A stretch of 64,000 nucleotides of DNA from a bacterium (GCA_043798995.1 JAZDOD010000010.1:845-64844), one strand, 5' to 3'. Shown: positions 585 to 49,020, counted from the stretch's first letter. Notes: generated by a model not told the origin, from the letters alone. Made by a program: numbers and translations.

Positions 585-711
585 GTCATTGCGACAGCCT
601 GTCCAGAAACTGCCGAATCATACTCTACTGTCATTCCTGCGAAAGCAGGAATCCAGAAAAATAAGATAAATTTCAGATATTCTGGATTCCGCATCAAGTG
701 CGGAATGACAG
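585..711. repeat. MITE-like hairpin element, GTCAT...ATGAC family (copy E1)
   Basis: Termini are 'gtcattgcgacagcc' and 'ggaatgacag'. Internal palindromes are 'gtcattcctgcgaaagcaggaatccaga' and 'tctggattccgcatcaagtgcggaatgac'. It is related to the copies at 36113, 36668 and 49962. The ORF-track ATG at 705 lies inside this repeat. Confidence 0.7.
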
Positions 712-812
712 TTTATAGACAGGCTGGCGGCAATCTCACGGGAAGCTGCAGGCTGACCCGTGTTCGCTGGTCACTAATGCTCCCGCTGAGAATTTTGAAT
801 TTGGTTAAGCTT

Positions 813-6800: not shown

Positions 6801-6923
6801 TATTGCCGCGATGCTGGCGGCCCGGGCCCAGCCGATGATCTGCCGGAGTTAAAATGGGATCCGCCGCTCATTCCCGGCCAAAGCGGAAATCTTCTCAAAG
6901 AATTTTATTTTGTGGTACCGTAG
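813..6923 (+). CDS. Giant (~2,035 aa) secreted/membrane-anchored cysteine-rich surface protein. It has an N-terminal signal peptide plus two hydrophobic helices (VirB2/TrbC-like topology), IPT/TIG-like beta domains, about 5 tandem 'Myxococcus cysteine-rich repeat' units (CGDG..GEDCDDGN..DGCS.KC) and Cys-rich EGF-like modules
   Basis: Long ORF. The likely true start is the ATG at 813 (MFSKNTDKK...), because the upstream ATG at 705 is inside repeat E1. Repeats 'ICGDGNIDLGEDCDDGNITNGDGCSAKCLAEG' recur about 5 times around 4,900-5,270. There is no stop codon for 6.1 kb. Confidence 0.75.
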   Translation: MFSKNTDKKFYKKKIYLLTFGFLIGFGFFLLAKTALAQFGLEYATASGLGTRGLKQTVFTVINVLLGFLGIVALVIVMYGGFVWMTAGGNQEKVSRAKKILLNGLIGLLLILTSWGIANFVLGQLWGATGGGGPTPGSPCDCVTELGICSGCLRCQNTGGPGVCTWQNDVTCDPTCFGLPGAKTFYAQKFQPTSPPDAIRNAVVRITFKGVNTSSQPGAINYGTNFSVIDVTGGNVLVNPDAAGSYPKVVGNRLEFKPDTNCPPPNASYKCFNSNNDYQIVISNLPPNTAVISNTAGININCILGAGCQANFRTNDIVDTTPPQISVSTLSQICAGTTNTVYANGKDDSGIAYVEFYYDDGSGDALIDTDNAPNCLGVPPNVNCSAQVNWDTSGDPDLVAGGTAFLKAKAMDLDSNEGNSANYKVTLRAAHCCNSIQDMDEEAIDCGGTDCAACAGANCDIDMPTPGCQPDDMVCASIFCDPSPGPNECKCQQPPIIDWVQPAGGFCDGSINTPCNDNADCSTFIPNTCNNTDPNGRPGNFVTIGGRFFGTTSGTVNFRGAAGWIMALPPISVNPACPPDTWTDHEIVVAVPNGVVNGPIQVETAAGYTDQTADTRGPLVPDFLVNTITRPGLCQAAPNSGPYATLVNLTGVRFGPAATSRTIEFGNETSFVPGENINWINNENANVTVPNLRPADVGLRIKTDDIYSNYLSFRVLPGTAGGPYISYLDPVSGPVGQYMTIFGGNFGNQVGTVKFIDGGANEVNADVNFPSECLNNFWHNNYIIVKVPSAAGVNDVKVITQAGKESNVVPFTITAGTPGPGICALIPDNGPVGTTVDFFGDNFGGALGQIIFHNSVSAPITSWANQSIKSSVPLGAVTGPVFARRGGQPSNQVPFRVGACQDSSQCQAGEECCEDKTCRITCPEKVEAIYGWSFTTGDYFVAQNCIRDIEIPATGPKGGNICVNAQIAVRFTTTVNDASVPPNVVVERCDNDECTTVSPVAGNVTMVTLATDPVTEGFTFTPSIIVLFDTNTTYRVTLRGGPGGIEDESGTPLIDDFSWTFKTRNDGRQCEIDKINVAPNNSKLVLMGATQDYVALITAKEDPCLLIDPKGYTWAWESSKPEVAQISGFTVNTATAVAMGAGSTDIIAKIPSENKSGKAILTVDLSGLQVLNAVPKCDTTCTNAQIRARFSNWVDDNTLAGNLFIYQCPNKVCGSGFTPVALNGANPYDYFWNGLTGDSLLDINQAANFNPNTFYRVIIKGGPAGIKNYLGGGLSNPNYKSSAGEECEPPGFPGCSASCLHTSGECTPGSLGCNGAGLHTGSIGSSCGNGAVEPARGENCDPSAPGYGPSGCDSTTCLLKGSIFPAICGDSSTPDRVHGEACDDRNQTAGDGCSPKCLREGTVAPICGDGNIDLGEDCDDGNITNGDGCSAKCLAEGAIGSVCGDRRVGLGEDCDDGNTAPNDGCSGSCLSEGATGLAVCGNNVVEDGKINDSYSWVFGVGNAICQPLRSEVVPANLTTIIGKTIDYLANVYSLADECSPTGQLLDADDYPWEWTTNNAFVADFDPPLPLPPHPPRETVKTLNVGNAQICASADTTTPPDGTYDLQDCADIVVQNPGPRRCQQSGNACCANGVSSCEPAYKCLENQSLPACPWSPGFFQDCLCCCDPTDDKCPAPLSCYADKAPCAGANRGLCCGCKQDSECPDPIGEGCGSDKCCHSRPAVAATLPANNDANICRNLKIRVDFDPLEPMQTSSFVGKVEMIKMSDSSAVKGMTSSAGNTILYFSPQSILEPQTQYRVTIKKEVLSIYKVAMAADYIFSFTTGDIICEADYLKVSIQHDADLFVTTNKDLFTCAKTSGCIDDTNTTILPPDIPDNQHLYLAEAMDMTGVVLTGYDYNWQTTDPDDIVNPNTWALNSITVTANNKKGRTTYNVKATPQLTSGNTAAVSNYVYVTNFICENPWPAVNNWPWIDDSVLNPNSICNTPGCFNVNTQFQIMYCRDAGGPGPADDLPELKWDPPLIPGQSGNLLKEFYFVVP

Positions 6924-17452: not shown

Positions 17453-17461
17453 TGTTATAAT
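17453..17461 (+). promoter_or_regulatory. Extended -10 promoter element 'TGtTATAAT' upstream of pilA
   Basis: The sequence 'tatgTGTTATAATgtgg' lies about 55 bp upstream of a strong RBS 'aggaaggggg' and the pilin start codon. Confidence 0.5.
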
Positions 17462-17517
17462 GTGGATAACTAATTAAAATGAAGAATTAAAATTCTTAAC
17501 AGGAAGGGGGTGAAACA

Positions 17518-22876: not shown

Positions 22877-23043
22877 AATTTTGGAAATTAAATAAATTTT
22901 ATTTTATAAGCGAGATGTTTTTGGGCTCACCCTCACCAAGCAGTAGTCTACCACAGACATTGTTTCGCTAAAACTAGGCGAAGGTGAACAGGCGAAGGCC
23001 TGTGGATAAATTTGCAAAAAGAGTAGGAATTTCTTGTCTCTTA

Positions 23044-23093: not shown

Positions 23094-26000
23094 ATGTCAA
23101 CAAGTAAAAATAAAAACACTTTTTGCTTTTCCCTACTAAAATTTAACCGAATTGTTAAGCCCTTATTAATGACTGGTATTTTTTTATTTTTTCTTTTTCT
23201 AAATTTTTTGCCCTGGCCGGCTAAAGCGGTAGAGATTAGTAATTTTAATCTTTCTCCCGGATGCGATAATAAGACTGATAATCCCGTCAACTGTGTGCCT
23301 GGTCAGATAGTAATAGAAGCGAGATGGGCAGCCCTAGATAATGCACTTTGCCCGACCGTGTCGGAAAATAAATGTTACTATAGAATTTTAAGAAAAGAAA
23401 GCTCGCCCACAGGGAGTTTTGTGACTTTAGTTAGCAACTTAACTTATATAAGCGGTGCTTCGGCAGTTTGGCGAGATACCGGCGGCGGATCTTATCCCCT
23501 GAAAGAAAGAACCAACTACACTTATAAAATAGAAGCTCGTGACGCCAGTGGCGGAACAATTTATGGCACCAGCGGCGAGAAAGAGACAATGAGCAAGGTT
23601 TGCGGCTGCCCGCACCCGTTTGTTTTATATGGAGCCAGTAATGATTGTGACGGCAATATTTCTCAAATCGGATTAAGTTGGCAAGAAACTGCCATTGAAG
23701 TGAGAGACGGGCGTGGGACTTCCATTTTAGCGCCTCACTACGGAATTTATCGTTGGAATGGTCCTTGCAGCAGCTCAAGTTGTTATGACCCTTCTAATGC
23801 AGTCGGATTTATTGATCGAGCCATTGCCTGTCAGGCTGGTAAATGTTTTTTTGTTGACGGCAATAATTCTGCCAAACGGCTCGAATTCAATAAAAGTTAT
23901 TATTATAAAGTAGTAGCTTATAGTGAGGGCGCGGAGAGAGCTTCTGCCAATCAATTAACACCAATAGCTGCTTTTTGTCCTAAACCCGTAATTCCCTCTA
24001 ATAGTGCCACGCCGCCCGGCTTAGAGCTTGACTGTAATCCCCTACAATTGAAATTAAGATGGGATGATTGCGCTGGCGCAACTAATCCTGCGGCCTGTCA
24101 GCAAAGTCGGCTTAACGTCCCTATCTTTTATAATATTTATAAAAATACCAATGAGAATGGCTATATTTGGATTAATTCACTGGCTGCCAATTCTTCCCAA
24201 TCTCCTTGCCAGTGGCAGAGCAACAAATTTAGTTGTCAATTTAGTGACAGCATTAAAAGTAATTTTAGCTATAGTTATTATGTTAAGGCAGCTGGCCAGG
24301 GCTGGACTTTAGACAGCAATTATAGCGAACTACTGACAATAATACCAGGCGCCTGCGCCGTTCAGATTAATCCGCCTGATTATCTATGGGTTACGCCTTT
24401 TTGCGATTCGCTTGATAATAATAAACCCAAGATGACTTTAAGCTGGGGTTACACTGCCACTCCGCCGGCTAATATCAGACGCTATTATATTCATAAATAT
24501 CGTTGCACTAATCCCCCAACTTGTAGCAGCTGGCAAGCCATTACCAAAGACGGGAATACAACTTATTACGATAGTTATAACACTACAGCCGAAGATGTGA
24601 TTTGGGTTGACGGTTCTCAAAGTTATCATACAGTGATTGCCGGTGAAACTTATCGTTATCAAGTGAAAACCGAAACTACCGACGGAGTCAGTAATCCTAC
24701 CCCCCCCAGCACTTCGGTCAAAGCTCGTGAAGATTGCGTTTCGCCGCCTCATACAGCTACTCCGGTTTTAACCTTGGGAGCTAGTTGTTCTAATTTAGCC
24801 CCGGTTATGATCTTAAATTGGACGCCGCCCAAAACCGACGGCAATGGCGACGGCAATAGCGACGGCACTACCGACGATATTTTTGTTTATCATATTTTAA
24901 AAAACGGCGTACTTTATACTGATACCGCCAATTCTGATTCTTATATAGACACATTCAACGTTAGCCCTGGCCAGCCGTATTATTATCAAATTATTGCCGA
25001 TGGGCCAGGCGGCCCAGCGGCTTCCAATCTTACCCCAACGGTAGTTAGCCGAGACGATTGCAATAAACCCACGCCTTTTAAATTAATCACCGTGGCTAAA
25101 AGTTGTCTTCCGCCGAGTCAGCATCAAGTTTATTTGGATTGGCAAAACTCATCTAATCTTAGCCGTTACGAAGTTTTTAGAAAAGCGACCAATAGCCCCC
25201 CTGATTGTACTACCAGCGAAGGGCGACTTTCGGCCGGCCTAATTACCAATCTTAATGTCACTAACTTTACTGATACTGAAAACTTAGTCGAAGGCGCGAC
25301 TTATTATTATTTTATCAGGGCTTCGGTTGACGGCGGCAGCTGTACTTTAGCCACCCTAGCCAGCGGCGTGAGCAATGCCGTGACCATTCCTTATACCACC
25401 CCAGGCCAGCCGAGCGGTCTTGCCGCTACGCCCCAGTGCTTAAATAGCTGGCAAAGCAGTATCCGCCTTACTTGGACAGTTGATCCCGCCGTAGCCAGTT
25501 ATAAGCTCTGTTACAATACTTCGCCGGCGGTGACCGAAGCTAATTGCACCCAGTCCTTACTTTCTACTGGTTCTTATGATTTCACCAATAATGTTACAGT
25601 TGGTCAGAATTATTATTTTGCCATTCAGGCCGATAGCGGTTGTGCCAAAAGTTTGTCAGCCGTGGTGGGGCCAACAACGGCTCGTTGTTGCCCGCCACCA
25701 AGTTTTTCCATAAACGGCACGGCAACCTGCCAATCAACGGCCGCGGCCCAACATACCCTTTCTTGGACTACTCATTCCTCGGCTGAAAGCTATGAGGTTT
25801 TTCAATCAGCCAATAATCTTGACTTTTCTTCTTTAGGTTTGCGGGTTTCACCTTTTAATACCTTAGTTGGCCCAAATAACACCTTTTACTATTTTGTCCG
25901 AGCCAAAGCTACTTGTGGATTAGAATATACTAATTCTAATACTTCTCAACTGGCGATTAATTGTCTTCAGTCCGCCAGTCCAACCTTAACCTTGAGCAGC

Positions 26001-29000
26001 ACCAGTTGTATTGGTGGCTATCCGGCTATTGCCTTTAGCTGGAGCCAATCAGCCAATGCCACTTCTTATAGCATTTATCGCTGCCAAGGAACTAGTTGCC
26101 CGCCCAACACAGAGATTAAAAGCGGTTATAATGGGACAAGCTATAATGACATAGGTGGCGAAGGTCAAGCACCCATAAGCGGCAATCTTTACAGTTATCA
26201 GATTAAAGCCATCAATGCCAATAGTAATAGTTTTAATCTTTCTAATTCTATCCAAAATATTTCAGCGCCTTATTGTCCGCCCGGTCCTTTTATTTTATCT
26301 TCCGCAACTAATTGCGATCCAGTGGCGAATAGGCCGATTTTTAAACTTAAATGGACCAAGGCGGCTGAACCAGCGACTTTGGATAAATATAAAATTTATC
26401 GGGTGACGGGCTTTATTTCCGGCCGAGGGCCAAGCGATCCAGTGGTAGCAGAAAAAGCCGGCACTTTTTTTGACCAATGGTGGACTGATGATACATTTCC
26501 GCCCGGCGAACCAATCAATGACCAAAATTATTCTTATTATGTTGAAGCCGTAGCCAAAAATAATGCCGGTTCTTCCTATTCTAATATTGTCAATTTGAAA
26601 AAGGACTGCCAAGGCCCGACCGGGACTTTGGCTTTAACCGCTAATGCCTCTTGTGATGCCAATGACGATCCTTATGTTGATTTGGACTGGACAATGAGCA
26701 ATTTGACTGATGTGGCCTCTTACAAGCTTTATCGGGGGGGCCAATTAATTTATACCGACGCCACTATTTCGGCCGTGGAAACTTATCCCGATTCCAATAT
26801 CGAAAGCGGTTCTTCTTATAATTATGCGGTGAGGGCGTGCGACCAAAATAATTTATGTACCAGCGATTCGGTCGTCAATAATGTTTCAGCGCCTTATTGC
26901 CCGGTCGGTATTCCGGCTGATTTGCAAGTCGGTGCTATTTGCCAAGAAGTAGATTTGCCCGCGGTTAATTTAAGCTGGCAGCCGGCCAAAAACGCCACCC
27001 AGTACACCGTTGTCAGAAAGATAGGAGGGGTCATTAATAAAACTTACTCGGTTACCGCTACTTCTAAATCAGATAATGAGGTGGTGGGCGGGACAACTTA
27101 TACTTATCAAATCATTGCCAAAAATCCAGCTAATTTGTGTGCTACCAATGATTGTGCCGTTTGTGCTGGCCAATGTTCAACTGTCCAAACCGCCTCGGTG
27201 CCTACTTGCGGGGTTAGTGAGCCGGTTCTTTTTGCTGACAGATATTGTAGCGGAGAAGGAGTGCCGGCTGATTTAAAGTGTTTTAGTCAGGGTGATCAGT
27301 ACGGCACTTATGCTCATTTTTGTTGGACAGCTGACGAATCAGCGGGAGCGCCGCTTTGGTGCCGCCTAGAAAGACAAACTCCTGAAGGCTGGTGGCTGGT
27401 TAAAACCCCGACTTTTCATAGCCAGGGGATATACGATTCTGGTTCTTCTACCGTTGATAATATTGCTACAACTCAAAGGAATAATATTACTAATCGAGCT
27501 TATTCAGCGCTTAGCTTTTATGATTTTTATGAGTCAGTCGTGCTGGGTCGGAGTGGCGTCAGTATGGTTCCTTCGCGCATCCAGCTTCTAGCCGGCATTT
27601 ATCCGGTCGGACCTTATCCTGAAGCTTCCCGGAATGTGACTTTGGACTTTTGGTTTAAAATTGGTCCTTACTCTTGTCTTACTAATAGAGATGATTTATT
27701 TTATTCGTTCCTTTGGAAACATAGCGGCGATCAAACTCAACCAGATTTTAGAATATCTTATAATGCTATTAACAACGGTGGTTATCAAGATGACTTAGTG
27801 ATGCTGAAAACAGATGAACTCGTGATCGTTGCTCCTGAGTCAGAAAGAGCAACTTTAATTAATTATCCAGAGCCAGGAGGCGGTTTAACTTGCGATACTT
27901 GGCATCATTTTCTTTGGACCCAAGACCAGACCTCGGGTCAGACCCAGGTTTATCTTGATAAAACTTTAGCTTACAATGGTCTTTGGGGTAGAAATTTTAC
28001 GAGAAATAATAACTTATATTTTGGTTGCGAATCTTTTTTTATGCCTGGCACAGCTAGTTATTTCCGCGTGCCGGAAACAATTTTTGACGAAATTAAAATC
28101 TGGCCGGACAAGATTATAAATAGCCGCCAAGTCCAAAAACTTTATGATCAAGATTACACCAAGCTAACAACATGGCCGGTTTTAAAAAATGTAATAGCTG
28201 TAACAACCTCCGCCGGCGGTTATCACACCTGCGCCCTTCTTGAAGACAAGACAGTTAAGTGTTGGGGGGAAAATGGCTTTGGCCAGCTCGGCCTTGGTAA
28301 TACTAATAGTCCCCAACTTAACCCAGTTTCAGTTCCTAATTTATCTAATGTCAAAGCCGTCGCCGTCGGCTTTTTTCACACCTGCGCCCTTCTTGAAGAC
28401 AAGACAGTTAAGTGTTGGGGGGAAAATTACTATGGCCAAGTCGGTGATGGTACTACTGTTACTCTCGCATTGAGCCCAGTTTTTGTTCATGATGTTAGTG
28501 TTAGTGGTGTTGTTTGGGCTGATTACCACACTTCTTACGATGATTTTGAGACAATTGAAGGCGGGCAATATAATTATCAGGTGACTTGCGGCTACACTGG
28601 CGGAGCAACCAGAACCACACCGGGTAACTTTGCTTTTCCCTGGTGTCAGCCAGACATTGATTTTCCCCAGACCAATGATTTACAAGGCATTTGTTCTGAT
28701 TGGGCCGATAAAAATAAAAATATAGTTGCTGATCAAACAGCTGATTGTTCCGGCGGTTATTCTGATGATACCGAAGAAATTGCGGAATCCAAGTATCAAC
28801 CTCAAGCTCCCTACGCACTGCTGGCTTGGGATTATTTAGGTGGGGCTGAAACTGTTGAAGTTAAAAGATATCAAGAAGGACAATCTGAAACCGAGGCAAT
28901 TACTTTAGCCAGTTTCTCGGTTGATCCGACTGATCCTAATAAGGCGAGCAGTGATATTCAGTGTCCTGAGGGTCATTGTTACTGCCAAGACCGCAGCGTC

Positions 29001-32000
29001 CAAGAAGCTGATCTTTCGCAAAAGTTTCATTACTTTGTTAAAGCTATCGGCCCGCCGCCTAGCAGGAGAGAAGCCAAACTTTATTTTCCCTCAGCTGACC
29101 CAGCTTTGTCTAAATCCTTTGGCCTGACTTGCTCTAATGATTACGGAACTGAAAAATTCTTGCTTTTAAACCCTTGCCAAGCGGGCCAGCCTACAGTCAA
29201 AATCGTTTTAAAGCCAAATAGCGGTCCGGCAGCTAACATTAAGAGCTATTGGGAAGGCAACGCTGAAATTTTAACCATTAGTCAAGGCCTAAGAAGCGTG
29301 ACCAAAGAAGGCGTGGCCTTAAGCGAGGATATGGCAGGCAATGATGATAGCGCGACTCAATTAAACGCCACTGGCTTTGCCAATCCTTATGGTGCGGTTT
29401 CCTGGTCAGCTTTGGGCAACATAAGTACTGACCCCAATCTGTCTCAAGAACCAATAGCCCTTTCAATGTGGGTAAAATTTGACAGTGCTTATCAGGCAGA
29501 AAAAGAAATTTTATTTTATGGCTTAAATCCGGCTTCTGTTTGGTGTGAAGGTTGCGGTGATGAGCCGCAAGAGTATTTAAGATTATCGCGTTCAGGCACG
29601 AGCCTTACTGCAGCTGACGAGGGCGAATTAGAAATTGCTTCGCGGGCGAGCGCCTATGTTGATAAAAGATATTATACTGATTATATTTTATCAGACACAA
29701 CTTCCTGGCATCACTTAAAAGGTGTCTGGCAAAATAATGGCGCTAACAAGAAAATGAAATTTTGGCTGGATTTTAACTTTATTGGCGAGATGATCATTGA
29801 CACCCCTTTTCCCATTCCTGCTACTTCTGGCTATAATATCTATTTAGGCGACCATTATAAAAACAGCGATACCTCGCCTCTAACTCACAATTCTATTACG
29901 GCCAAAGCTCGCCTTGATGAAGTTTATATTTCCAAAGATTCGGGCAATGACCCTTATTATTACGAGATTTTCCGCAAAGCCCCGAGCGAGCAAACTTACC
30001 GGCATTTAGTCACTTTGGATAGCAATGCTTATCAATGGTTTGAAAGGGAATTAACAGCCGAGAGCGAATATGCTTATAAAGTGCGTCTGATTCCGACTGA
30101 TCAAAATAAACTTTCCCTGACTTTAGCTACTTTTGAAAATACACCTGATAATATTATTTTGCCGGCCGACTGCCGGCCCGAATATGGTCCGTTTGACTTT
30201 CAGGCCTTGTCCTCCAGTTGTTTGGCCAGCCAGCCAGTTATTAATTTATCTTGGCAGGACAATAAGGCACCTTCGGCTGAGAACAATTACTCCCTCTTAG
30301 CTGACTTGCCAAGCGGTGTAGTTTATATCTCCATCCCGCCGGCAAATTGCACTAAAAATTCACCCAATGAGCCTTACCAATGTCATTATGTCTATCAGCT
30401 GCCGGCCGAAACTGATTATTTTCACGAGCATATGTTTTATCTTATACGTGAGGCCGAAGAAGACGAAATAGCCAATGGCGCGCCTGATTTTTTCTTAACT
30501 TCTTTAGCCGAAGCAGTCCGACCAGCTCGCTGTTTTGACGAGCTGCCAAAGTGGCCTGATCCTGATAATTTATCTGGCAATGCTTGTTGCGCGGAAAATG
30601 GTCTTTGTACTTCTAACGGGCCAGAGCCAGCTGTTTTCTTAAACTGGCAGGATGCGCAATACACTAATTATTATGAGATTTATCGCTGTCAGTTAGGGGT
30701 CTCGCTTTGCAGTGATTTATCTGATTTTATTTTAATGGGTTCTGTTGAAGAAACAGTGGTCTGTTTAAATGCGGGTAGCCAGACTGGCAGCCTTTGTCGA
30801 TTTGACTGGGAATGCGGCAGTGGCACCTGCGGTGAAACCAGTTATAATTTGACCGATGATCAAGTAGCGGCCGGCGCCACTTATGTCTATCGCATTTTTG
30901 CTTATGGTAATGGCTCTCAAGAGGCCAATAATTCTCTAATTGTTATTACCCCCAGTTTTGGCAGAGAAGCGGGAAATTGTAAATTAATTCCGGCCACTCC
31001 TTTTATTACTAAAATTGAAAGAGGCTGTACTGCCACGGACGAGCCGTTTCATCGGCTATGGTGGGATTATGCTAATCAATATGGCACAGAAGTTGCGCCT
31101 TCGGGCGATCCTAATCCTAATATTATTATTGATCATTGGCTAATTGAAAGACAGCCCCCAAACGGCTCCTTTGATTTAGTTAAAGAATTTTATCCGACTA
31201 ACTTACCCTTGCCTTTGGTGAGCACTAATTTTATCACTCCTTTTAATAATAATTTGGTCGCCGGCCACTTTTATAATTACGGAGTCAAAGCCGTGACTCA
31301 AGTTGATTCAGAATTTTTTGAATCTTATCCTTCGCCGACGGTTGGAGCAATGGCTCCTTTTTGCACTGATCCGCCGAAAAACGATATTTTCAATTTTGGC
31401 ATAGATGAGTACAGTAGTTGTAATAAAATTAGCTTTAAATTCGAGACTGCCGCTGATGATTTTGCCGAGGGTTATGAAATTTATCAACTTGCTAATTTGC
31501 CCAGTTTGGCCAAATTTAATTATCAAAATTGTCAATATAATTATTCAAATTTTTCCCAAGGAGAACTAAAATGTAGCTATTCTTCTTCTTGTAGTTGCGC
31601 TGGCGTGGGCAGTGTTTGTGATTTCTGCAAAAACAAAAAATTAAATGACCAGGGGCTCTTAATTAAAGAGATTATTCAAGCTCGGGGACCGACTACCTAT
31701 ACTTTTGAAGCAGAAAATTTTGCCCAAAACACCACCTTATATTGGGCAGTGGTGCCTTTTAATAGCCGGGGTTATTACGATTCAATCGAGGGCGGTAATA
31801 TTATTCCAATTCAAACTAATCTTTGCGCCCAGGCCCCAATCAGTTCCACCTTTACTGCCGTAAGTAAATGTCCTTCAACCGTTGAGCTTAAATGGAAAAA
31901 CCCCGACGAATCAATTTATGGCTATAAAATTTATCGCAAAAAATTAGAAGAGTCGGATGCCTCTTATCTTTTGTTGGCTGATAAAGACGAGGATAGCAAT

Positions 32001-32234
32001 GAAGTGAAAGAAGCTTGCGATATTCCCAATAAATCATCCTGTTTCAATCTTTATCAAGATGAACTGTCTCAAGCTCTGACCGAGATTTACAAATATAAAA
32101 TTGTCAGTGTTTCCCAACAATTTATTGAGAGCGAAGGTCGAACGTATCTGATCGAAGGCGAGGCCATTAATAAAAACGCTCGCGCCTGTTTCCGCTTGCC
32201 GCGCTGGCAGGAACTGCCGGGAATAACGCCGTAA
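23094..32234 (+). CDS. Giant (3,046 aa) surface protein with an N-terminal signal/TM, many fibronectin-III-like modules, two RCC1-like blades, a LamG/concanavalin-like lectin region and Cys-rich segments
   Basis: Uninterrupted 9.1-kb ORF. Recurrent 'L.W....Y.(I/V)YR' FN3-like periodicity. '[28 protein letters not shown]' occurs twice (RCC1 signature). It has its own promoter. Confidence 0.8.
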   Translation: [3046 protein letters not shown]

Positions 32235-40335: not shown

Positions 40336-41511
40336 ATGGCTTTTATTTCAAATGAAAATCAACCCCAAAATGGTTTTAATAAATTTTTAAAAAGAGATAT
40401 TAGCGCGCCTTTTCTTATTTTATCTTTTTTATTGATTAGTTTTTTATCCGGCACTTTAGGCGGTTTAATTGTCAATAATTATTATCAAGCCGAAGAGATA
40501 AGTGCCCAGCAGCAAATTTCCCGTCAAAATTTGCCCAAGGTCTCAACTAAAGAAGTTGAATCTAAACAGCTTAATCAATCTTTAGCCGGAAGTACTGTTG
40601 GCATCTATTTAACAAAAATAGCCGGCCCTGATTTATTAAACAATAGTTATTCACCCTTGGACCTAAAAGGCAGCGGCCTTATTTTAACCAATGACGGCTG
40701 GATAACGACAAGTCGGAAAGTTATTGAAGCGGCGCAACCGAATAAATATACGGTTATAACTCAAGACAGCTATACATTTCCTCTGGATAAGATAGTTTTA
40801 GACAATGCCACGGATATAGTTTTTGCTAAAATCAAAAGTGAGGCAAAAATAGAAAATTTGCCAACCGTTCTTTTTGCCGACAGTTCCGAATTGCAAGTCG
40901 GCGACGACTTTTTTTCATTCGGTTCTTCGGGCAGAATCGCTACGGGTAAAACCTTAAACTCAATTGATTATTATTTTGATTCTCGCGATCAATTTGTTCA
41001 GTCAACGGAAAAATTTTCTAAAATTATTTTATTAGCCGGCAAGGGCTATGACAATTCTTTTATCGGAGGTCCTGTCTTCAATTTAAAAGGAGAGGTAGAA
41101 GGCGTGGTTATTAATTTTAATAATAATGAAATAAGAATTTTGCCGATTGATTATCTTAGCGATAAATTTGAAACTTTATTCAAGACGGGTGAGATTAAAA
41201 GAAACTATTTGGGGATAAATTATTTGGATTTAAATTCTATTTATTTATTTGATAAAAGAGCCCTTAATCTCACCCAAGGAGCATTAATTACAAAAAATAA
41301 AAACAAAGTCGCTGTCAGCAAAAGCAGTCCGGCTGAAAAAGCAGGATTGCGAGAAAATGACATTATCTTGGCAGTTGAAAAAGAGTCATTAGCCCCTTTT
41401 TATAATTTGACCGAGTTAATTCAGCAATATAAAGAGGGGAGCGAGGTAACATTAAAAGTGAAGAGGCAAGATAAAATAATCGATATAATAGTTAAATTAG
41501 AGACAAGATAA
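40336..41511 (+). CDS. HtrA/DegP-like trypsin-fold protein with a C-terminal PDZ domain, probably catalytically inactive
   Basis: The trypsin-like core and PDZ ('GALITKNKNKVAVSKSSPAEKAGLRENDIILAV') are recognizable. The His-box reads 'ILTNDGWITT' with no His, and the GDSGGP serine box is replaced by 'DNSFIGGPVF'. Confidence 0.55.
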   Translation: MAFISNENQPQNGFNKFLKRDISAPFLILSFLLISFLSGTLGGLIVNNYYQAEEISAQQQISRQNLPKVSTKEVESKQLNQSLAGSTVGIYLTKIAGPDLLNNSYSPLDLKGSGLILTNDGWITTSRKVIEAAQPNKYTVITQDSYTFPLDKIVLDNATDIVFAKIKSEAKIENLPTVLFADSSELQVGDDFFSFGSSGRIATGKTLNSIDYYFDSRDQFVQSTEKFSKIILLAGKGYDNSFIGGPVFNLKGEVEGVVINFNNNEIRILPIDYLSDKFETLFKTGEIKRNYLGINYLDLNSIYLFDKRALNLTQGALITKNKNKVAVSKSSPAEKAGLRENDIILAVEKESLAPFYNLTELIQQYKEGSEVTLKVKRQDKIIDIIVKLETR

Positions 41512-42590: not shown

Positions 42591-42890
42591 TTAGTTTTCA
42601 TTTTTGGTTGTTTCCTGGCCGGGGCTAAAAAGTTTATTTTTAATTTTCCATTTTTCCACATACTGGCCAACCCCCTCCCGTTCTAATTTGAGGCGGCGGC
42701 GAGTATTTTTTTGCGACCAACTAACCAAACTCTCAAAATTAATTTTGTAACGGCCCCTGACCACAATATAACGCAGCTCCTGATTTTTTAGGGCTTGGCG
42801 AATAGTGGTGGACGTCACGCCAAAGAGGCGACCGGCTTCGCTAACTGAAACCCGGATTGGGAACTTGGGTGCTTTGTTTTGTTCAGCCAT
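42591..42890 (-). CDS. Small helix-turn-helix DNA-binding protein (Xis/MerR-like HTH_17 type)
   Basis: 'VSEAGRLFGVTSTTIRQALKNQEL' is an HTH. The likely start is the internal Met (MAEQNK...). It is divergent from the operator-like palindromes at 42917-43014. Confidence 0.55.
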   Translation of the reverse strand: MAEQNKAPKFPIRVSVSEAGRLFGVTSTTIRQALKNQELRYIVVRGRYKINFESLVSWSQKNTRRRLKLEREGVGQYVEKWKIKNKLFSPGQETTKNEN

Positions 42891-42916
42891 AAATTTAAAA
42901 AATAAGAAATTTAAAT

Positions 42917-43014
42917 TATACACAGTTGTATAAGTTTATAATTATATTTTATACAATGTTGTATAGGTTTGTCAAGTTTTTAATGATTTTATTTATTTTA
43001 TACAGCTATGTATA
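42917..43014. promoter_or_regulatory. Three 16-bp perfect-arm palindromes TATACA-N4-TGTATA (42917-42932, 42950-42965, 42999-43014); putative operator array
   Basis: 'tatacacagttgtata', 'tatacaatgttgtata' and 'tatacagctatgtata', read directly. They lie between a divergent HTH gene and the ECF sigma operon. Confidence 0.6.
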
Positions 43015-43028
43015 ATTAAGCGATTGAT

Positions 43029-43146
43029 GTCATTGCCACGCCCACCCCTTTCCGAGTAAAGGGGTGGGCGTGGCAATCTCTTTCTTCATTAAAAATAATA
43101 AGATTGCTTCGTCGTCCGCCAGCTGGCGGACTCCTCGCAATGACAG
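43029..43146. repeat. MITE-like hairpin element (GTCAT...ATGAC family), copy E6
   Basis: 'tgtcattgccacgcccacccctttccgagtaaaggggtgggcgtggcaatc ... cgtcgtccgccagctggcggactcctcgcaatgacag'. Confidence 0.7.
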
Positions 43147-43244
43147 AAATAGATAGTTGCCAAGATCTTAAAAATCATTTATTATATCTTATATCAATAT
43201 TGGCTTAAAAGTGTAACACTTTAATAAATTTTTCGTCTTAATAA

Positions 43245-43841
43245 ATGATTGAGAATTTACAAGATAAAATCCTTGTTTTAAAGATAAGAAACGGTGAAAC
43301 AGAGGCCTTTTCAGAAATTTATGATCGCTACGCCACCAGAATTTACCGCTTTATTTTTTTTAAAACAAGCCGAGTTGAAGAGACAGAGGATCTGACTTCC
43401 GAGGTTTTTCTCAAGCTTTGGCAGTATCTTAGCCAGGAAAGGGGAGAACTTCGCAATTTAAAAGCTTTTCTTTATCAAATGGCTCGGAATCAGGTAATTG
43501 ATTATTACCGCGGTCTAGCCGCTAAACAAACCGTGTCTTTGGATGAAAGATTAATCGAGCAAGTGGAATTATCAAGTTTAACGGGTTTAACGGGTCAGAG
43601 CCAGCAGATGAAAATTTTTGAAAAAATTGAGTTTGAAGAGGCATTTGAAAATATTAAAGATGGCTTGGCTAAACTCAAAGAAGAATATCGGGAAGCGCTG
43701 TTGCTTAAATATGTTGAAGATTTTTCAACCGGGGAGATCGCGGAAATTATTAATAAATCAAAAGGAGCAACGCGAGTCATTATCCATCGAGCCCTATCGG
43801 CCTTAAAAGAAGTAATTAAGGACGCCGAGCGTCCGAAATAA
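43245..43841 (+). CDS. RNA polymerase sigma-70 family factor, ECF-type
   Basis: Region 2 ('YDRYATRIYRFIFFKT...DLTSEVFLKLW') and region 4 ('EYREALLLKYVEDFSTGEIAEIINKSKGATRVIIHRALSALK'). Confidence 0.85.
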   Translation: MIENLQDKILVLKIRNGETEAFSEIYDRYATRIYRFIFFKTSRVEETEDLTSEVFLKLWQYLSQERGELRNLKAFLYQMARNQVIDYYRGLAAKQTVSLDERLIEQVELSSLTGLTGQSQQMKIFEKIEFEEAFENIKDGLAKLKEEYREALLLKYVEDFSTGEIAEIINKSKGATRVIIHRALSALKEVIKDAERPK

Positions 43842-43846
43842 AAAAA

Positions 43847-45001
43847 ATGACCAATCAAGAATTAATCAATAAATTAAAAGTTATCAAAAAAATTCAGCCG
43901 GATGAGACTTGGCTTAAATTAAATCGGGAAAGATTATTGGCTCAAATCGCCAATCAGAAAACTGCTTCCTCGTCTCATCAAGGTTTGGCTGAAGTTTTTT
44001 ATTTTGGCCGGCTTTTCAAACAATTAAGCAAAAATTTTGTTTTACAGCCCGTCGGCACTTTTGTTTTAATGCTGGCTATAGTTTTAGGCGGCGGAGTGGC
44101 TAAGGTTCAAGCTGATGCCAGTTTGCCGGGCGATTTTCTTTATGCTTTTAAACAGGGCGGCCAGCAGTTTCGGATGATGCTGGCCAGACGCGATGATCAA
44201 CGGCTCAAACTGCAGTTGGAATTTACCGACCGCCACTTAGATGAGTTAACCCAAATTGCCGAGCAAAGTAATTTTGCTACCTCCGAAAGAGAAGAACGCC
44301 TGCGAGAAGCGCTTAATATTTTTCAGGCCGATTTAGCTTATTTAAATAATAATTTGCAATCAATAAATTCTCAGACCGATGTTTCCGGAGCAGTGGCAGC
44401 GGCTCAGAAAGTTGATGAGAAAACCAATCTTTATCAATTGGTCTTAAAACAAACCGAACGAAAAATGGCTACTGGTAAAATTCAAACAGAGGTTCGGAAG
44501 ACAATTAAAGCCGTTGATGAAACCGAAACCAAGGCCTTAACTATGATTGTCAGCAAACATCAGCAAGGCCAAAGCCAAATTTCTTCCCAGGAAGTGGCAA
44601 TGAGAATTGAAAGCAAAATCAAACAAGCCACCGATAATTTAGATGAATTAGGCAAAACTTTAACAACAACTTCAGTTGACGGTAAAATAAATGAAGCAAA
44701 AACCAATTCTCAAAAAGTGCAAGATATGTTAGAGCAAGCCAGACAGGACTTGGCTAATCAGGAATTTGTCATTGCTTTGGAAAAAATTAAAACCTCGCAG
44801 GAAATTTTTAATGAGGCCAAGGATTCTGTTGCCGAAACAACCGAAACAGCCACTTCAACCTCAACCGAAACTAATGTTAATGCCGGTTTAATCAGAGAAA
44901 ATTCAATCAATATTTTAACTCCAACCAGTTCTGAAAAAGGTTTTGGCAGCGCTCCGGCTGATCCTGAAATGCCGGCTCAGACACCACAGACGCTTAAATA
45001 A
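43847..45001 (+). CDS. DUF5667-like membrane protein, putative anti-sigma factor partner of the ECF sigma
   Basis: It is located immediately downstream of the sigma gene with a 5-bp gap. It has one TM 'VGTFVLMLAIVLGGGVA' and a long coiled-coil extracytoplasmic region. Confidence 0.5.
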   Translation: MTNQELINKLKVIKKIQPDETWLKLNRERLLAQIANQKTASSSHQGLAEVFYFGRLFKQLSKNFVLQPVGTFVLMLAIVLGGGVAKVQADASLPGDFLYAFKQGGQQFRMMLARRDDQRLKLQLEFTDRHLDELTQIAEQSNFATSEREERLREALNIFQADLAYLNNNLQSINSQTDVSGAVAAAQKVDEKTNLYQLVLKQTERKMATGKIQTEVRKTIKAVDETETKALTMIVSKHQQGQSQISSQEVAMRIESKIKQATDNLDELGKTLTTTSVDGKINEAKTNSQKVQDMLEQARQDLANQEFVIALEKIKTSQEIFNEAKDSVAETTETATSTSTETNVNAGLIRENSINILTPTSSEKGFGSAPADPEMPAQTPQTLK

Positions 45002-45042
45002 AATCCTAAATCCTAAATCCTAAATCCTAAATCCTAAATCCT
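45001..45042. repeat. Tandem heptamer (aaatcct) x6
   Basis: Perfect tandem repeat starting on the stop codon of the preceding gene. Confidence 0.9.
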
Positions 45043-45186
45043 ATTTATTTTTATGTTTATAAACCATTGTAAGTTAAAGGTCGGGCCCTTTAAAAGGCGC
45101 TTGCAATTAAAATTTAATTAACCTTCTAAGTTTGGGCAGAAGTCGAAAATTGCCTTGAACTTAGAAAAAAGGAGAAAAAATTAATT

Positions 45187-48100
45187 ATGTCCAAATTAAC
45201 CAAGAAAATTTTCACTTATGTAGTAGTTTTTACTACGGTGATTTGGTCCATTGGTTTGGTTTCTGTTTTGCCAGTAGCAGCGGTTAGCTTATCTGCCGGC
45301 GACGTTATCAAAAGCAGCGGCAAAGCCGTTTATTACTACGCGGCTGACGGTAAAAGATATGTCTTTCCAACCGACTTGATTTTCAAGACCTGGTATAAGG
45401 ACTTTACAGGAGTTAGAACCATTTCCGACAGCGAACTTTCTGCCATTACTATTGGCGGCAACGTCGTTGCTCGAGGTGGCGTTAAATTAGTCCAATTCGT
45501 GACTAATGACACTCCTTGGAAGGTCTCTGATCCCAAGGTCTATGCGGTCACTCCGGGCGGAAAATTAAGACAGCTTACTTCAGCTGATGTCGCTTCTGGT
45601 CTTTATGGAGCTAACTGGGAGTCCAGAATTACCCCGGTAGTAGAAACTCTCTACAACAATTACACAATTGGTAATCAGATTACCAGTTCAACCGATGTTC
45701 CTGACGGTTCATTAATCAAATATTCCGGCTCAGCTGCTATTTATTATGTTGATGGCGGCAAAAAGCGAGCCGTTGACACAATGGCTACTATGGATGCCAA
45801 CCGCTTCCAGGATTCAGCCATTATCACTATTCCCAGCACTGTAACTTTGTCTGATGGCACTGCTTTAACTGGCGCTGAATCAACTATCACCAATACCGCT
45901 GGCGGAGCTAGTACCGGCACTTCAACCGGCACTGGTTTAACCGTGGCTTTGGCCTCTGATACTCCGTCTTCAGGTCTAGTAGTTGGCGGCGCAGCCAGAT
46001 ATCCATTCACCAAAGTTAATTTAACTGCTTCGTCTGATGGCGACATTGTTATTGATTCATTGGTTATGCAAAGAGGCGGTCTTGGCAGCGATGGCGCTTT
46101 TTCCTCTTTAGCTATCATTGACGTGGCTACTGCTGAGCAAATCGGTCTTGATAAAACCCTTAATTCTGATCATGAAGCGAATTTAAATGATGACATCACT
46201 ATTAAAGCTGGTACCACTAAAACCCTGCTTTTGGCTGGCAATATGGTGGCTAGAGCGACAATGGCTAGCTATGCTGGCGAAGCTCCGGCTTTATGTTTGA
46301 AGTCAATTACCCTTTCCGGCAGCGTTACCTTAACCGGCACCTTGCCTATTTGCGGTAACACTCAAACCACCAACGCGACCATTATCGTTGGCACTGCTAC
46401 TTTAGGCACTGGCGCTTCTAATCCAGCGGCTAACTCTTCAGTTGCTATTGGGACTAAGACCTTTAACATCATGGAATTCAAGATTTCCAATACTGGTTCA
46501 GCCGAAGATGAGCAAGTTGAGCAAGTGACGGCCCAGGTTTATGATGGTTCTGTAGCCGACGGCGACATCAAGAATATCCAGTTAGTTGACTCAACTACTG
46601 GCTCTGTTTTAGCTACCGTAGCTCAAGCCACCAGTAAGAAAGTCATCTTTAATTTATCAGCCACTCCCTTGGAAATTAAAAAGGGCTACAGCAAGGACTT
46701 GATGATTCGGGCTGATATTGATGGCGGCGCCGCTAGAACCTTGGATATGGTCATTAAGAAATACACTGATCTTTTGATCAAGGGTAAAACTTATGGCTAT
46801 TATGTTACGGCTACGGCCGGTACTGGCGCTTCAGGCAGTGAGCCAATAATCAATGGCGCTAATCACACCGTTGGTTCTGGGACTTTAGCGGTAGCTCAAG
46901 GCACTTTGGCTGCGGCTAATATTGCCGAAAACAGCCAGCAAGTGACTTTGGGTAAATTTGATTTCACCGTCAAAGGTGAGTCAGTTGAGATGACCCAAGT
47001 TGGTTGGCAGACCTACATTGATCAAACCACAGCCGGCACTGGAGCAACCACTTCGGATATTACCAATATCACTATTTATGATGAAAACGGTAAAACCGTG
47101 GCTGGTCCGACTAATCCTACCCATGATTATGGTGATGGTGACGAGGCCTATGGTTCAGCGACTACGACCGATACGATTACTTTGACTCCGGGTACTCACA
47201 CCTTGACTGTTAAAGGTAATTTAAGCGCTGATTTTAGCAACAATGATGTGGTTAAGATTAACTTAACTCCCAATCCTAATATTACAGCTAAAGGCGTGAC
47301 CACCGGCAACACCATTACAGCAACTCCGGCGACGGTTTTGATTTCAGCTACTATGACTGTTAAGACCGTGGCTTTGGTTGTCAGTATGTCTAGTTTGCCT
47401 TCAGCCCAGACCGTGGTTAAAGGCGTTAATGGCTTTACTCTTGCTAATATTATTTTAGACACTCAGGGTTCAGGCGAAGATGTTAATGTTACCCAAGTTG
47501 CTGTTTCGGTTAAACCACTCGTTATGGCCGCCAATGAACTGTCTGGTTTTGCCATTTATGACGGTACCACTAAAATCTCAACTTCCAACGATCCGGACAA
47601 CGCTCTGTCTTCAACTGCCGCGACTAACTCAACCAGTACCTTTACCTTTTCTTCAACTTTGAAGCTGACCAAAGGTACGGTTAAGACCTTAACTGTTAAA
47701 GCTAATATCAGCCGAGCGACTTCAGCTTCTGACACAGTACAAGTTGGTGTTGGTTCTTCTGGCTGTGTTTCAGCCAGCGGTTCTTCCACCGGCTCGTCTA
47801 TTACTGCTTCAGTTAGTCCAAGTCATGGGCCATTAATGACCCTGGCTGATAATGGTTCTTTGACTATTTACGCTTCTTCCGCTAGTCCAATCGCCGGACT
47901 CTTGCCGGCTTCAACCTCTGGCGTGACAGTCGGCGTAATCAATATCAGCGGGAAGCAGGAAGACATTAATCTGCAGAAGATTTACTTGACTGCTACCGCG
48001 GTTAATAGCGGCGGTCTGGATCAAATTGACAAACTCTATCTCTATGATGGTTCAACTCAAGTTATTGCTGTCACGCCAACTACTTCTGACACCGGTTCAG

Positions 48101-49020
48101 CCACTGTTTTAGTTGATATGACTAATACTCCAGTGGTAATTACGGCTGGCGCCAGCAAGGACTTAACTATTAAGGTAGATACCGCGGCCGCTAATCGCTT
48201 CTTGGGCTCAACCAAGGGTATGGCTGGTCAGGGCCTTAGCTTCTCAATTGCCGCTGTTGCTGATGTGACCGCTCAAGGCGTCTCTTCTGGTTCAACTTTG
48301 GGCACTACTGACAAAACGGTCAGTTGCTCTATGAACCAGTTTACTCTCTACAAGAGCGTGCCAACTGTGACGGTTAATTCAGATCTGGCAACAGCTGACA
48401 AGGTGGCTGATGGTACACTAACCACTTCATCCGGTAAAGAGGTTTACAAGTTTAGAGTAGCGGCTGATAGCGCCGGCGACATCGGTCTTTACCAGGTCTC
48501 ACTCTTGGTCACGACCAGTACGGCTACCACCTCTAATTATTATCTTTATGATGGTGGTACCAAAGTCGCGGCGACTACCACTGCTTCCCAGTATGTGACA
48601 GCTTCTTCTGGTCAAGGTGGCATTGCTGTCTTCAACTTACTCTTTACCAATGATGGTAATGCGCCAAGCAATACCAATGTGGTGCCTTTGACCATTTCGG
48701 CCGGTACCTCTAAGATCTTGACCTTAAAAGCTGATTTGACTTGTAGCGCCGGTGGCGCTGGTTGTACTAGTGCTAATGGCAGTTCGGTTCAATTCCAGTT
48801 CTTAGGCGATTCTGCCTTCCCCAGTACCTATCCTAACAATGCTACGACCTTAGGTGTCGATGCTTATGACGCCAGCTTTATCTGGGGTGATTACAATATC
48901 ACCAACGGTAACTCATCAACCACTGCTTCTACTTCAGAGCAATGGACCAATGGTTACCGCGTCAAATCCGGTTCTTCTGTCTTGGCAGCTACTTCATCCG
49001 CAGTCAGCTTCACCAAGTAA
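45187..49020 (+). CDS. Large (1,277 aa) secreted Thr/Ser/Ala/Gly-rich surface protein, S-layer-like
   Basis: Signal peptide 'VVFTTVIWSIGLVSVLPVAAVS', a ~200-aa N-terminal globular domain, then about 1,000 aa of beta-rich T/S/G/A low-complexity repeats. Strong RBS 'aaggag' at 45166. A strong terminator follows the gene. Confidence 0.7.
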   Translation: MSKLTKKIFTYVVVFTTVIWSIGLVSVLPVAAVSLSAGDVIKSSGKAVYYYAADGKRYVFPTDLIFKTWYKDFTGVRTISDSELSAITIGGNVVARGGVKLVQFVTNDTPWKVSDPKVYAVTPGGKLRQLTSADVASGLYGANWESRITPVVETLYNNYTIGNQITSSTDVPDGSLIKYSGSAAIYYVDGGKKRAVDTMATMDANRFQDSAIITIPSTVTLSDGTALTGAESTITNTAGGASTGTSTGTGLTVALASDTPSSGLVVGGAARYPFTKVNLTASSDGDIVIDSLVMQRGGLGSDGAFSSLAIIDVATAEQIGLDKTLNSDHEANLNDDITIKAGTTKTLLLAGNMVARATMASYAGEAPALCLKSITLSGSVTLTGTLPICGNTQTTNATIIVGTATLGTGASNPAANSSVAIGTKTFNIMEFKISNTGSAEDEQVEQVTAQVYDGSVADGDIKNIQLVDSTTGSVLATVAQATSKKVIFNLSATPLEIKKGYSKDLMIRADIDGGAARTLDMVIKKYTDLLIKGKTYGYYVTATAGTGASGSEPIINGANHTVGSGTLAVAQGTLAAANIAENSQQVTLGKFDFTVKGESVEMTQVGWQTYIDQTTAGTGATTSDITNITIYDENGKTVAGPTNPTHDYGDGDEAYGSATTTDTITLTPGTHTLTVKGNLSADFSNNDVVKINLTPNPNITAKGVTTGNTITATPATVLISATMTVKTVALVVSMSSLPSAQTVVKGVNGFTLANIILDTQGSGEDVNVTQVAVSVKPLVMAANELSGFAIYDGTTKISTSNDPDNALSSTAATNSTSTFTFSSTLKLTKGTVKTLTVKANISRATSASDTVQVGVGSSGCVSASGSSTGSSITASVSPSHGPLMTLADNGSLTIYASSASPIAGLLPASTSGVTVGVINISGKQEDINLQKIYLTATAVNSGGLDQIDKLYLYDGSTQVIAVTPTTSDTGSATVLVDMTNTPVVITAGASKDLTIKVDTAAANRFLGSTKGMAGQGLSFSIAAVADVTAQGVSSGSTLGTTDKTVSCSMNQFTLYKSVPTVTVNSDLATADKVADGTLTTSSGKEVYKFRVAADSAGDIGLYQVSLLVTTSTATTSNYYLYDGGTKVAATTTASQYVTASSGQGGIAVFNLLFTNDGNAPSNTNVVPLTISAGTSKILTLKADLTCSAGGAGCTSANGSSVQFQFLGDSAFPSTYPNNATTLGVDAYDASFIWGDYNITNGNSSTTASTSEQWTNGYRVKSGSSVLAATSSAVSFTK

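Follow-up and report, generated by a model that had tools for sequence, protein, structure and literature searches.

Regulators such as Spo0A, CtrA, MtrA, AdpA and HP1021 have binding sites in promoters as well as in oriC beside DnaA boxes, which allows them to control replication initiation. Among smaller winged-helix proteins, BldC, a 68-aa developmental regulator of Streptomyces, is monomeric and assembles in head-to-tail fashion along direct repeats of 9 bp (AATT-N4-C) (PMC5859096). TnrA and GlnR show that dimerisation of a MerR-type winged helix on DNA does not require a coiled coil (PMC5859096; PMC4914108). A "wing dimer" of RacA recognises a 14-bp palindrome that occurs in clusters near the origin (PMC4914108), motifs close to the origin are likewise the targets of RicO (bioRxiv 10.64898/2026.03.06.710092), and RacA, RicO and RocS carry coiled coils and anchors (PMC4914108; bioRxiv 10.64898/2026.03.06.710092). 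Here we describe a locus from a bacterial DNA stretch of 64,000 nucleotides (GCA_043798995.1 JAZDOD010000010.1:845-64844; hereafter the window, with positions counted from its first letter), in which three palindromes of the form TATACA-N4-TGTATA lie between a minus-strand gene for a small helix-turn-helix (HTH) protein and a plus-strand gene for an extracytoplasmic function (ECF) sigma factor (ATG at 43245). The palindromes are real and, judged by comparative genomics, act like operators that belong to the adjacent HTH gene. The reading that we favour, at a probability of roughly three in four, is that they form the operator array of a dimeric autorepressor, namely the adjacent 99-aa Xis/BldC/MerR-type winged-helix protein.

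The array, the predicted promoter and the candidate regulator have the following coordinates.

42917-42932, no strand: candidate operator site 1 (proximal), TATACA-CAGT-TGTATA, ending 26 nt before the HTH ATG

42950-42965, no strand: candidate operator site 2, TATACA-ATGT-TGTATA, inside the HTH promoter spacer

42999-43014, no strand: candidate operator site 3 (distal), TATACA-GCTA-TGTATA, ending 23 nt upstream of the -35

42946-42975, minus strand: predicted sigma70-type HTH promoter, with TTGACA (42975-42970), an 18-nt spacer and TAAAAT (42951-42946)

42591-42890, minus strand: HTH gene, encoding a 99-aa winged-helix (HTH_17 or "excisionase-family") protein, the putative operator-binding protein

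An exact scan of the 64-kb window returned exactly three matches to TATACA-N4-TGTATA, at 42917, 42950 and 42999, with start-to-start distances of 33 bp between sites 1 and 2 and 49 bp between sites 2 and 3. The three sites, identical 6-bp arms, variable 4-bp cores and spacings given in the original prediction were thus all recovered. That prediction had also named random frequency of the motif in an AT-rich genome as an outcome that would speak against operators. This was not what we observed: in 100 dinucleotide-preserving shuffles of the window, the mean number of matches was 0.00 and the maximum 0, and allowing up to two mismatches added a single match in the window, a pure A/T string at 55412. 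Chance and AT-richness were ruled out as the source of the palindromes by these shuffles and by the mismatch scan.

Conservation of the sites was assessed in relatives collected by a pattern scan with one genome per species, of which at least 568 were confirmed and 80 loci were kept for comparison; the upstream region was taken as the 400 bp preceding the conserved SVSEA motif. Matches to TATACA-N4-TGTATA with up to two mismatches numbered 115 in the 32 kb upstream of the 80 orthologues, compared to 37 in the other 603 kb. Perfect sites of the family form (T[ACG]TA[CGT]A-N4-reverse complement) were enriched approximately 164-fold, with 75 in 27 kb of HTH-sigma intergenic DNA and 8 in 478 kb elsewhere. 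Of the 69 analysable HTH-sigma intergenic regions, 60 contained one or more sites with at most one mismatch, always at the HTH end. Most of the loci lacking a match carry diverged extended palindromes at the same place, such as TTTGTATAGG-GTAC-CCTATACAAA in L048. At a Falkowbacteria locus (L042), three ATTCACC-N7-GGTGAAT palindromes 114, 230 and 349 nt before the HTH ATG replace the TATACA-type sites, which may represent operator turnover with retention of the three-site layout.

The position of the sites relative to the HTH gene was then defined by its start codon and its predicted promoter. Since 37 homologues align from ATG 42890, and not from GTG 42923 of the listed 110-aa open reading frame (ORF), the HTH protein is 99 aa long and site 1 is non-coding. 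The predicted HTH promoter agrees with the sigma70 consensus at 11 of 12 positions. Site 2 occupies its 18-bp -35/-10 spacer, with a 2-nt overlap with the -10 hexamer, while site 1 starts 13 nt downstream of the -10 and would span about +8 to +23 of the predicted transcript. The -35 and -10 hexamers are invariant in the close relatives L203, L001 and L202. Both site 1 and the arms of site 2 are unchanged in L203 and L001 and have one altered arm base each in L202 (TACACA in site 2), and the core of site 2 varies among relatives. Site 3 keeps its arms, and its core differs in every close relative (TAGC, AATA, AATA and TCTA on the HTH strand). Thus, the -35, the -10 and all three arm pairs are nearly constant in relatives with 98, 88 and 88% protein identity, the only arm changes being the two single-base ones of L202, while the cores drift; a relative at 80% protein identity retains two sites at shifted positions.

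A similar arrangement was observed further away. In many lineages, a TTGACA-17/18-TAnnAT promoter stands directly before the proximal operator, which itself lies 5-30 nt ahead of the HTH ATG, and the palindrome, when anchored on the proximal site, extends to 24 bp as TTTG-TATACACTAGTGTATA-CAAA or AAGG-TATAGAATAGTGTATA-CTTA. Across loci, site centres peak 10-30 nt downstream of the -10 in HTH-directed sigma70-like promoters. No helical phasing was seen among 25 site spacings.

As evidence that the HTH protein reads these sites, operator variants tracked recognition-helix variants across lineages, in the following pairs.

helix S[ST]KTIRQ/E: operator aaGG-TATAGA-ATAG-TGTATA-CTta

helix N/D-x-Q/H-TIRR: operator tttG-TATACA-CTAG-T[GC]TATA-Caaa

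helix TSTTIRQ (the window's lineage): operator aacT-TATACA-N4-TGTATA-Aaat

In statistics that ignore phylogeny, residue 32 (R versus Q/E and others) was associated with flank base -2 (T versus G/A) at 23:1 against 1:23 (Fisher p = 3.6e-11), and with operator arm position 5 at p = 1e-3. The symmetry of the sites bears on what is recognised. Each site could in principle give an RNA hairpin in the HTH leader, or a DNA cruciform, with a 6-bp stem and a 4-nt loop, and site 1 is predicted to be transcribed. However, 40 of the 75 family sites have arm mismatches, at the degenerate positions 2 and 5, that are unable to pair in RNA, and the would-be loop is self-complementary in 25 of the 75, compared to 4.7 expected. 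The distal sites also lie upstream of the promoter, and the stems would be A/U-rich and weak. Hairpins and cruciforms were rejected on the arm mismatches and the symmetric cores, and we consider them extremely unlikely; the same two properties favour a symmetric protein dimer. No known RNA family was detected in the whole window by an Rfam scan at gathering thresholds, and a permissive Rfam scan of 42880-43260 gave only matches to hairpins of miRNA models, far below threshold.

A small HTH protein on the adjacent minus strand had been part of the original prediction, and its assignment was confirmed by a match to TIGR01764 ("excisionase family DNA-binding domain"; 30.3 bits, cut-off 28.8) and by a winged-helix model. 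The score against Pfam HTH_17 (PF12728) falls just under the cut-off (24.4 versus 27), and PF12728 is precomputed for nearly all of the homologues, which number at least 1,447 at 57-98% identity, all in Patescibacteria-type assemblies. An AlphaFold2 model built on 38 homologues has a predicted local distance difference test score (pLDDT) of 89-94 over residues 11-60, which form a beta-alpha-alpha-beta-beta(wing)-alpha winged helix (E13-15, H16-23, H27-35, E41-44, E47-51, H52-59). In the model, the winged helix is followed by two short helices (63-72, 75-80) and a tail of low confidence; in the alignment, the protein has a conserved basic-hydrophobic tail (WKIKNKLFSP). Foldseek against the PDB returned mycobacteriophage Xis (4J2N, the best match), BldC (6AMA/6AMK), RacA, GlnR and MerR-family DNA-binding domains, all with weak E-values, as expected for a 50-residue domain. 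The target-normalised TM-scores (TMt) of Xis 4J2N and BldC 6AMA/6AMK were 0.72-0.79, and the BldC match had a root mean square deviation of 1.3-1.6 A over approximately 50 residues. By sequence, a PDB search for the HTH family gave only a marginal Xis match (E = 0.42) and nothing below 0.4.

The TIGR01764 match and the structural proximity to a phage Xis would agree with the palindromes being excisionase (recombination-directionality) sites of a mobile element. True excisionases, however, come with a mobile element, an adjacent integrase and direct-repeat sites near att, a description that the locus does not fit: we found no integrase or mobile-element gene near the HTH locus, whose neighbours are of the chromosomal housekeeping type (GatA, an HtrA-like protease, TsaD, glycosyltransferases and UDP-glucose dehydrogenase), synteny of the locus extends over hundreds of species, and Xis-type sites are direct repeats. 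An excisionase function can hence be given almost no credence.

BldC (6AMA, 6AMK) is, like the HTH protein, a small stand-alone winged helix of the same fold, and it binds multi-site arrays in promoter regions, as the HTH sites likewise form an array. In contrast to BldC with its direct repeats, the HTH protein is associated with inverted repeats; the symmetric sites and their self-complementary cores (25/75) argue against a BldC-like direct-repeat mode of binding. The HTH protein further differs by its length of 99 aa, its two extra helices and its conserved basic tail, and sequence similarity between the two is not significant. Streptomyces also has the ECF sigma factor BldN, and the sigma factor of the window is nearest to the BldN-family model. 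To our knowledge, bldC is not genome-linked to bldN. The array itself resembles those of classical dimeric autorepressors, which have palindromic operators over their own promoter, multiple sites, conserved arms and free cores, although classical autorepressors and TnrA/GlnR belong to a different protein family and have a different motif. In function, the HTH protein would work like a classical autorepressor, and possibly also like origin-binding regulators such as Spo0A or CtrA, which, together with MtrA, AdpA and HP1021, are response regulators or AraC-type proteins and not Xis/MerR-type winged helices of 99 aa. A literature search on this HTH family, on the HTH/ECF module, and on Patescibacteria with ECF sigma factors, DUF5667, regulons or oriC returned nothing relevant.

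In the mechanism that we propose, the HTH protein would bind each 16-bp site as a two-fold symmetric dimer and would read the 6-bp arms, plus the flanks in other lineages, rather than the 4-bp core. Site 2 lies in the spacer of the predicted promoter, site 1 covers roughly the first 20 bases of the predicted transcript, and site 3 flanks the -35 on its upstream side. With sites over the spacer, the start region and the upstream edge, occupancy should block RNA polymerase, either at binding or at promoter escape, and would result in negative autoregulation, to which the presence of three sites could impart cooperative, switch-like behaviour. The divergent ECF sigma operon would be driven by its own promoters, probably with no direct control through the palindromes. 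The locus has the characteristics of an autoregulated repressor/operator pair, with sites that are conserved upstream of the orthologues, overlap the promoter and co-vary with the regulator. The dimeric-repressor operator array put forward in the original prediction is supported by this comparative genomics, through conservation, enrichment, promoter overlap and co-variation.

Several points weigh against autorepression by a dimer. Xis and BldC bind direct repeats head-to-tail, not palindromes (PMC5859096). The AlphaFold2 model is a monomer, with low confidence past residue 82, and the HTH promoter and its transcription start are consensus predictions. In one lineage (L030, L031, L044 and L066), the HTH gene is present with no recognisable palindrome. 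Part of the co-variation could reflect shared descent, which makes it supportive rather than decisive. Finally, the placement of site 2 within the promoter spacer would also be the geometry of a MerR-type activator, so that the HTH protein might activate its own promoter by binding between the -35 and the -10. The 18-bp spacer, longer than optimal, and the MerR-like DNA-binding fold are in line with such activation. However, classical activators of the MerR type work with spacers of 19-20 bp and with a long coiled-coil dimer (PMC5859096), and the latter is missing from the model: with 99 aa and two short helices, the HTH protein has neither the C-terminal coiled coil nor the effector domain of classical MerR proteins. 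Nor is the operator centred in a 19-20-bp spacer as in those proteins, since the spacer measures 18 bp in the window and the proximal operator is found downstream of the -10, not in the spacer, in most lineages. Moreover, the -35 and -10 are already at 11/12 consensus. We regard activation from the spacer as improbable.

The original prediction had extended control by the HTH protein from its own gene to the divergent ECF sigma operon. The first part was supported, as the sites are tied to the HTH gene and its promoter, while direct control of the sigma operon was not, in view of its separate promoters and of the location of the sites at the HTH end. The features of this operon are given below.

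43245-43841, plus strand: ECF sigma gene, with Sigma70_r2 and r4_2 domains only

43847-45001, plus strand: DUF5667-like putative anti-sigma gene, from a weak domain match

45187-49020, plus strand: gene for a putative secreted or surface protein of 1,277 aa

43212-43237, plus strand: predicted ECF-type promoter of the sigma gene, TGTAAC-N16-CGTC, with the CGTC ending 7 nt before ATG 43245

43157-43185, plus strand: predicted sigma70-like promoter, TTGCCA-17-TATTAT, ahead of the ECF promoter of the sigma gene

The sigma protein scores 85.5 against TIGR02937 (cut-off 42.9). Its closest NCBIfam match is the BldN-family model, at 109 bits, well under the cut-off of 206 for membership. Among PDB entries, the closest was 6DXO, named only as an ECF-subfamily sigma factor, followed by SigW. 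We take 6DXO to be the RsbN-BldN complex. That complex is described in PMC6101532. The anti-sigma assignment of the next gene is weak: its product scores 24.7 against DUF5667 (cut-off 27), and a PDB search with it found no relative. For the 1,277-aa protein, no Pfam or NCBIfam match was obtained, and its "S-layer-like" label was not confirmed. A divergent ECF sigma gene accompanies the HTH gene at 78 of the 80 loci; the anti-sigma-like gene is present at 56 and a big-protein homologue at 65, with the gaps mostly explained by contig ends.

The ECF-type promoter is sharply defined. TGTAAC-N16-CGTC is unique in the window, where 0.02 occurrences are expected, and it recurs at a constant -32 relative to the sigma ATG, as an exact copy in 51 of 69 loci and in 63 of 69 when TGTAAT is allowed, in the form TGTAAC/T-N16-CGTCT. 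It is nearly invariant between the window and L001. No such promoter was found before either the HTH or the big-protein gene: TGTAAC-N15-17-CGTC has a single occurrence in the window and is nearly confined to the sigma gene in the other loci. The sigma gene therefore has the attributes of an ECF sigma factor with an autoregulated promoter, namely sigma2 and sigma4 domains only, a promoter of the AAC-N16/17-CGT type and a downstream, weakly assigned anti-sigma-like gene. By the typical geometry of ECF promoters, the 7-nt distance from the CGTC to the ATG would imply that the sigma mRNA is autoregulated and leaderless, or nearly so.

The array, and especially site 3, might nevertheless also or mainly control the divergent ECF sigma, anti-sigma and surface-protein operon. 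Conservation of the divergent HTH/sigma layout in 78 of 80 genomes points to coupling; a plus-strand TATAAT follows site 3, so that a sigma-directed transcript repressed at this site is conceivable; and at two loci (L041 and L077) a family site lies between the anti-sigma and big-protein genes. However, the sigma gene has its own conserved promoters, the sigma70-like one (TTGCCA-17-TATAAT in L001) and the ECF-type one, which lie 143 and 198 bp beyond site 3 and are overlapped by no site. In a comparison of the window with L001 (88% identity), only two islands were conserved, the HTH promoter/operator block and the ECF promoter, and the approximately 190 bp between them were unrelated. Over 69 loci, moreover, operator sites are almost never within about 120 nt of the sigma ATG, and site centres, those of distal sites included, show no association with sigma-directed sigma70 promoter-like sequences. 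Because the operon has its own promoters, the sites keep to the HTH end and the DNA in between is not conserved, the evidence does not support a direct action of the palindromes on the sigma operon, and we judge such control unlikely. Given the conserved divergent synteny, some functional link between the HTH and sigma transcription units is nonetheless likely.

In related lineages, we observed the operator at a second type of location. A scan of a metagenome collection for the long operator form TTGTATASACTAGTSTATACAA gave at least 120 loci with at least 159 exact sites, and among the sites listed, 49 were upstream of an HTH orthologue and 110 elsewhere. Within 150 bp of these 110 listed non-HTH sites, DnaA boxes (TTATCCACA, at most one mismatch) were found at least once in 90 cases, at least twice in 67 and at least three times in 36. 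The mean number of boxes was 1.86, compared to a background of 0.15 per 300 bp and to 0.22 at HTH-adjacent sites. The gaps between box and palindrome edge were discrete (1-3, 13-14 and 33-34 nt in one orientation, 20 and 31-32 nt in the other), and this fixed spacing suggests a direct interplay between the HTH protein and DnaA. We also found parS-like sequences in 22 of the listed 120 loci, mostly 36-800 bp from the sites, a flanking tRNA-Arg(CCT)/tRNA-Ala(CGC) pair in 12 of the 20 loci tested, and genes diverging from the site in 9 of 12 long loci. Two further results stop short of showing an origin: no DnaA signature motif was found within approximately 5 kb on either side, and the GC skew changes sign at only 2 of 12. 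We infer, with good support, that the non-HTH operator loci are origin-like regions, though not proven oriC. The window itself has no DnaA-box cluster, parS or tRNA, and origin-type sites are known here from related lineages alone.

Two further patterns were seen at the origin-like loci. The composite TTATCCACA-(1-3 nt)-TTGTATA[CG]ACTAGT[CG]TATACAA recurs together with parS-like sites and the tRNA pair (for example at L090:2526, L086:1975 and L171:7960, among L081-L200). In L182, four operator palindromes follow each other every 78-80 bp (3841-4098) between tRNA-Ala(CGC) and tRNA-Arg(CCT), with a fifth at 3430, and resemble a tandemly repeated unit.

The association with DnaA boxes raises the question of whether another factor, such as DnaA or an unidentified origin protein, binds the palindromes, the HTH gene being merely one target. 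The same palindrome lies beside DnaA boxes at fixed spacing in the origin-like regions, and perfect DnaA boxes are enriched 7-fold in the HTH-sigma intergenic regions of some lineages (14 of 69 loci, the palindrome-less lineage included). In the window, the left half of site 1 (TTATACACA, 42916-42924) is one mismatch from a DnaA box. Site 1 was rejected as a DnaA box, since the would-be essential CA falls in the variable core while the symmetric 6-bp arms are conserved. Moreover, operator variants follow the HTH recognition helix while the DnaA box stays TTATCCACA in the same contigs, and sites that neighbour the gene of a regulator are most simply explained as operators of that regulator. Recognition by a factor other than the HTH protein is thus, in our view, very unlikely.

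DnaA boxes were also observed in HTH promoter regions. In L004, L016, L034, L041, L050, L053 and L061, a perfect box in HTH orientation lies approximately 15 nt upstream of the proximal operator, at about the place of the -35. Such boxes belong to the "S[ST]KTIRQ" lineage and also occupy a conserved position in L030, L031, L044 and L066, which suggests a DnaA input into HTH expression in some lineages. In the window, no DnaA box was found upstream of the proximal operator; perfect DnaA boxes occur in the window at 17461-17469 and at 23001-23009, just upstream of ORF 23094-32234 (3,046 aa), which is one of two giant plus-strand ORFs, the other being 705-6923 (2,072 aa).

RacA, RicO and RocS of Firmicutes share the MerR-type winged helix with the HTH protein, and the HTH-family palindrome is also present at origin-like loci. 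They differ, however, in having a long coiled coil together with an anchor to the membrane or to DivIVA, neither of which is predicted for the HTH protein. Unlike the HTH-family sites, theirs are scattered across hundreds of kb and are not set among DnaA boxes at constant distances. Autoregulation via promoter operators is not known for these proteins, and no sequence-level relationship to the HTH protein was detected. As the direct-repeat sites of BldC, the coiled coil and 19-20-bp spacer of classical MerR proteins, the mobile-element setting of excisionases and the coiled coil of RacA/RicO/RocS were looked for and not found, we did not assign the HTH protein to any of these groups. At the level of the family, the HTH protein probably has at least one class of targets beyond its own promoter. 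We tentatively propose that it could be an unrecognised origin-binding regulator of Patescibacteria, which would shut its own promoter and bind DnaA-box-spaced palindromes near parS and the tRNA pair, and which might gate or organise replication initiation, its invariant pairing with the ECF operon coupling envelope or host-contact signalling to the cell cycle of such ultra-small symbionts.

Other elements of the locus were noted in passing. A GC-rich multi-stem element (43018-43150) lies in the AT-rich spacer between site 3 and the sigma promoters and comprises a perfect 20-bp stem (43032-43077) and a palindrome, GTCCGCCAG/CTGGCGGAC (43114-43131). Folded as RNA, it reaches -65 kcal/mol (z = -8). 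It is unique in the window, matches no Rfam family, is common to L203 and L201 with a small number of compensatory changes and is missing from both L001 and L202. Ahead of the 1,277-aa gene, in the gap of 185 bp, a perfect tandem heptamer (AAATCCT, 6.1 copies; 45001-45043) starts from the stop codon of the anti-sigma-like gene. The window also contains a gene for an HtrA-like Trypsin_2+PDZ protease (40336-41511), and 22 of the 80 loci have a gene of this type downstream of their HTH gene; a DegS-like role of this protease in cleaving the anti-sigma factor is conceivable. In a few loci, a gene for a DUF5656 protein lies downstream of the HTH gene. Many of the related assemblies (L009, L011-L015 and others) are titled "uncultured Gammaproteobacteria bacterium" (Third Party Annotation (TPA) entries of metagenome-assembled genomes (MAGs)), and one each "archaeon", "Helarchaeota" and "Udaeobacter". 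Because all of them carry the Patescibacteria-type locus, these titles are probably wrong, or the bins contaminated.

The ultra-small and mostly uncultured Patescibacteria (the Candidate Phyla Radiation, CPR) account for a substantial part of bacterial diversity, and their transcription and cell-cycle control are almost unknown. The candidate regulator/operator pair described here, conserved across at least 568 species-level genomes, lends itself to testing with a protein of 99 aa and 130 bp of DNA. It belongs to a conserved four-gene module in which the HTH gene diverges from genes for an ECF sigma factor, a putative anti-sigma factor and a giant putative surface protein, with a precisely defined ECF promoter that is probably leaderless and provides a ready-made promoter consensus for this ECF group of Patescibacteria. 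A protein of the Xis/BldC fold that apparently reads palindromes instead of direct repeats bears on how this small fold oligomerises on DNA. If the operator indeed marks origin-like DnaA-box clusters, it would offer a sequence handle for oriC and replication control in Patescibacteria, and the composite DnaA-box/operator element could act as an oriC-locating signature in these lineages. This wide conservation and the link to origins set the array above a routine operator.

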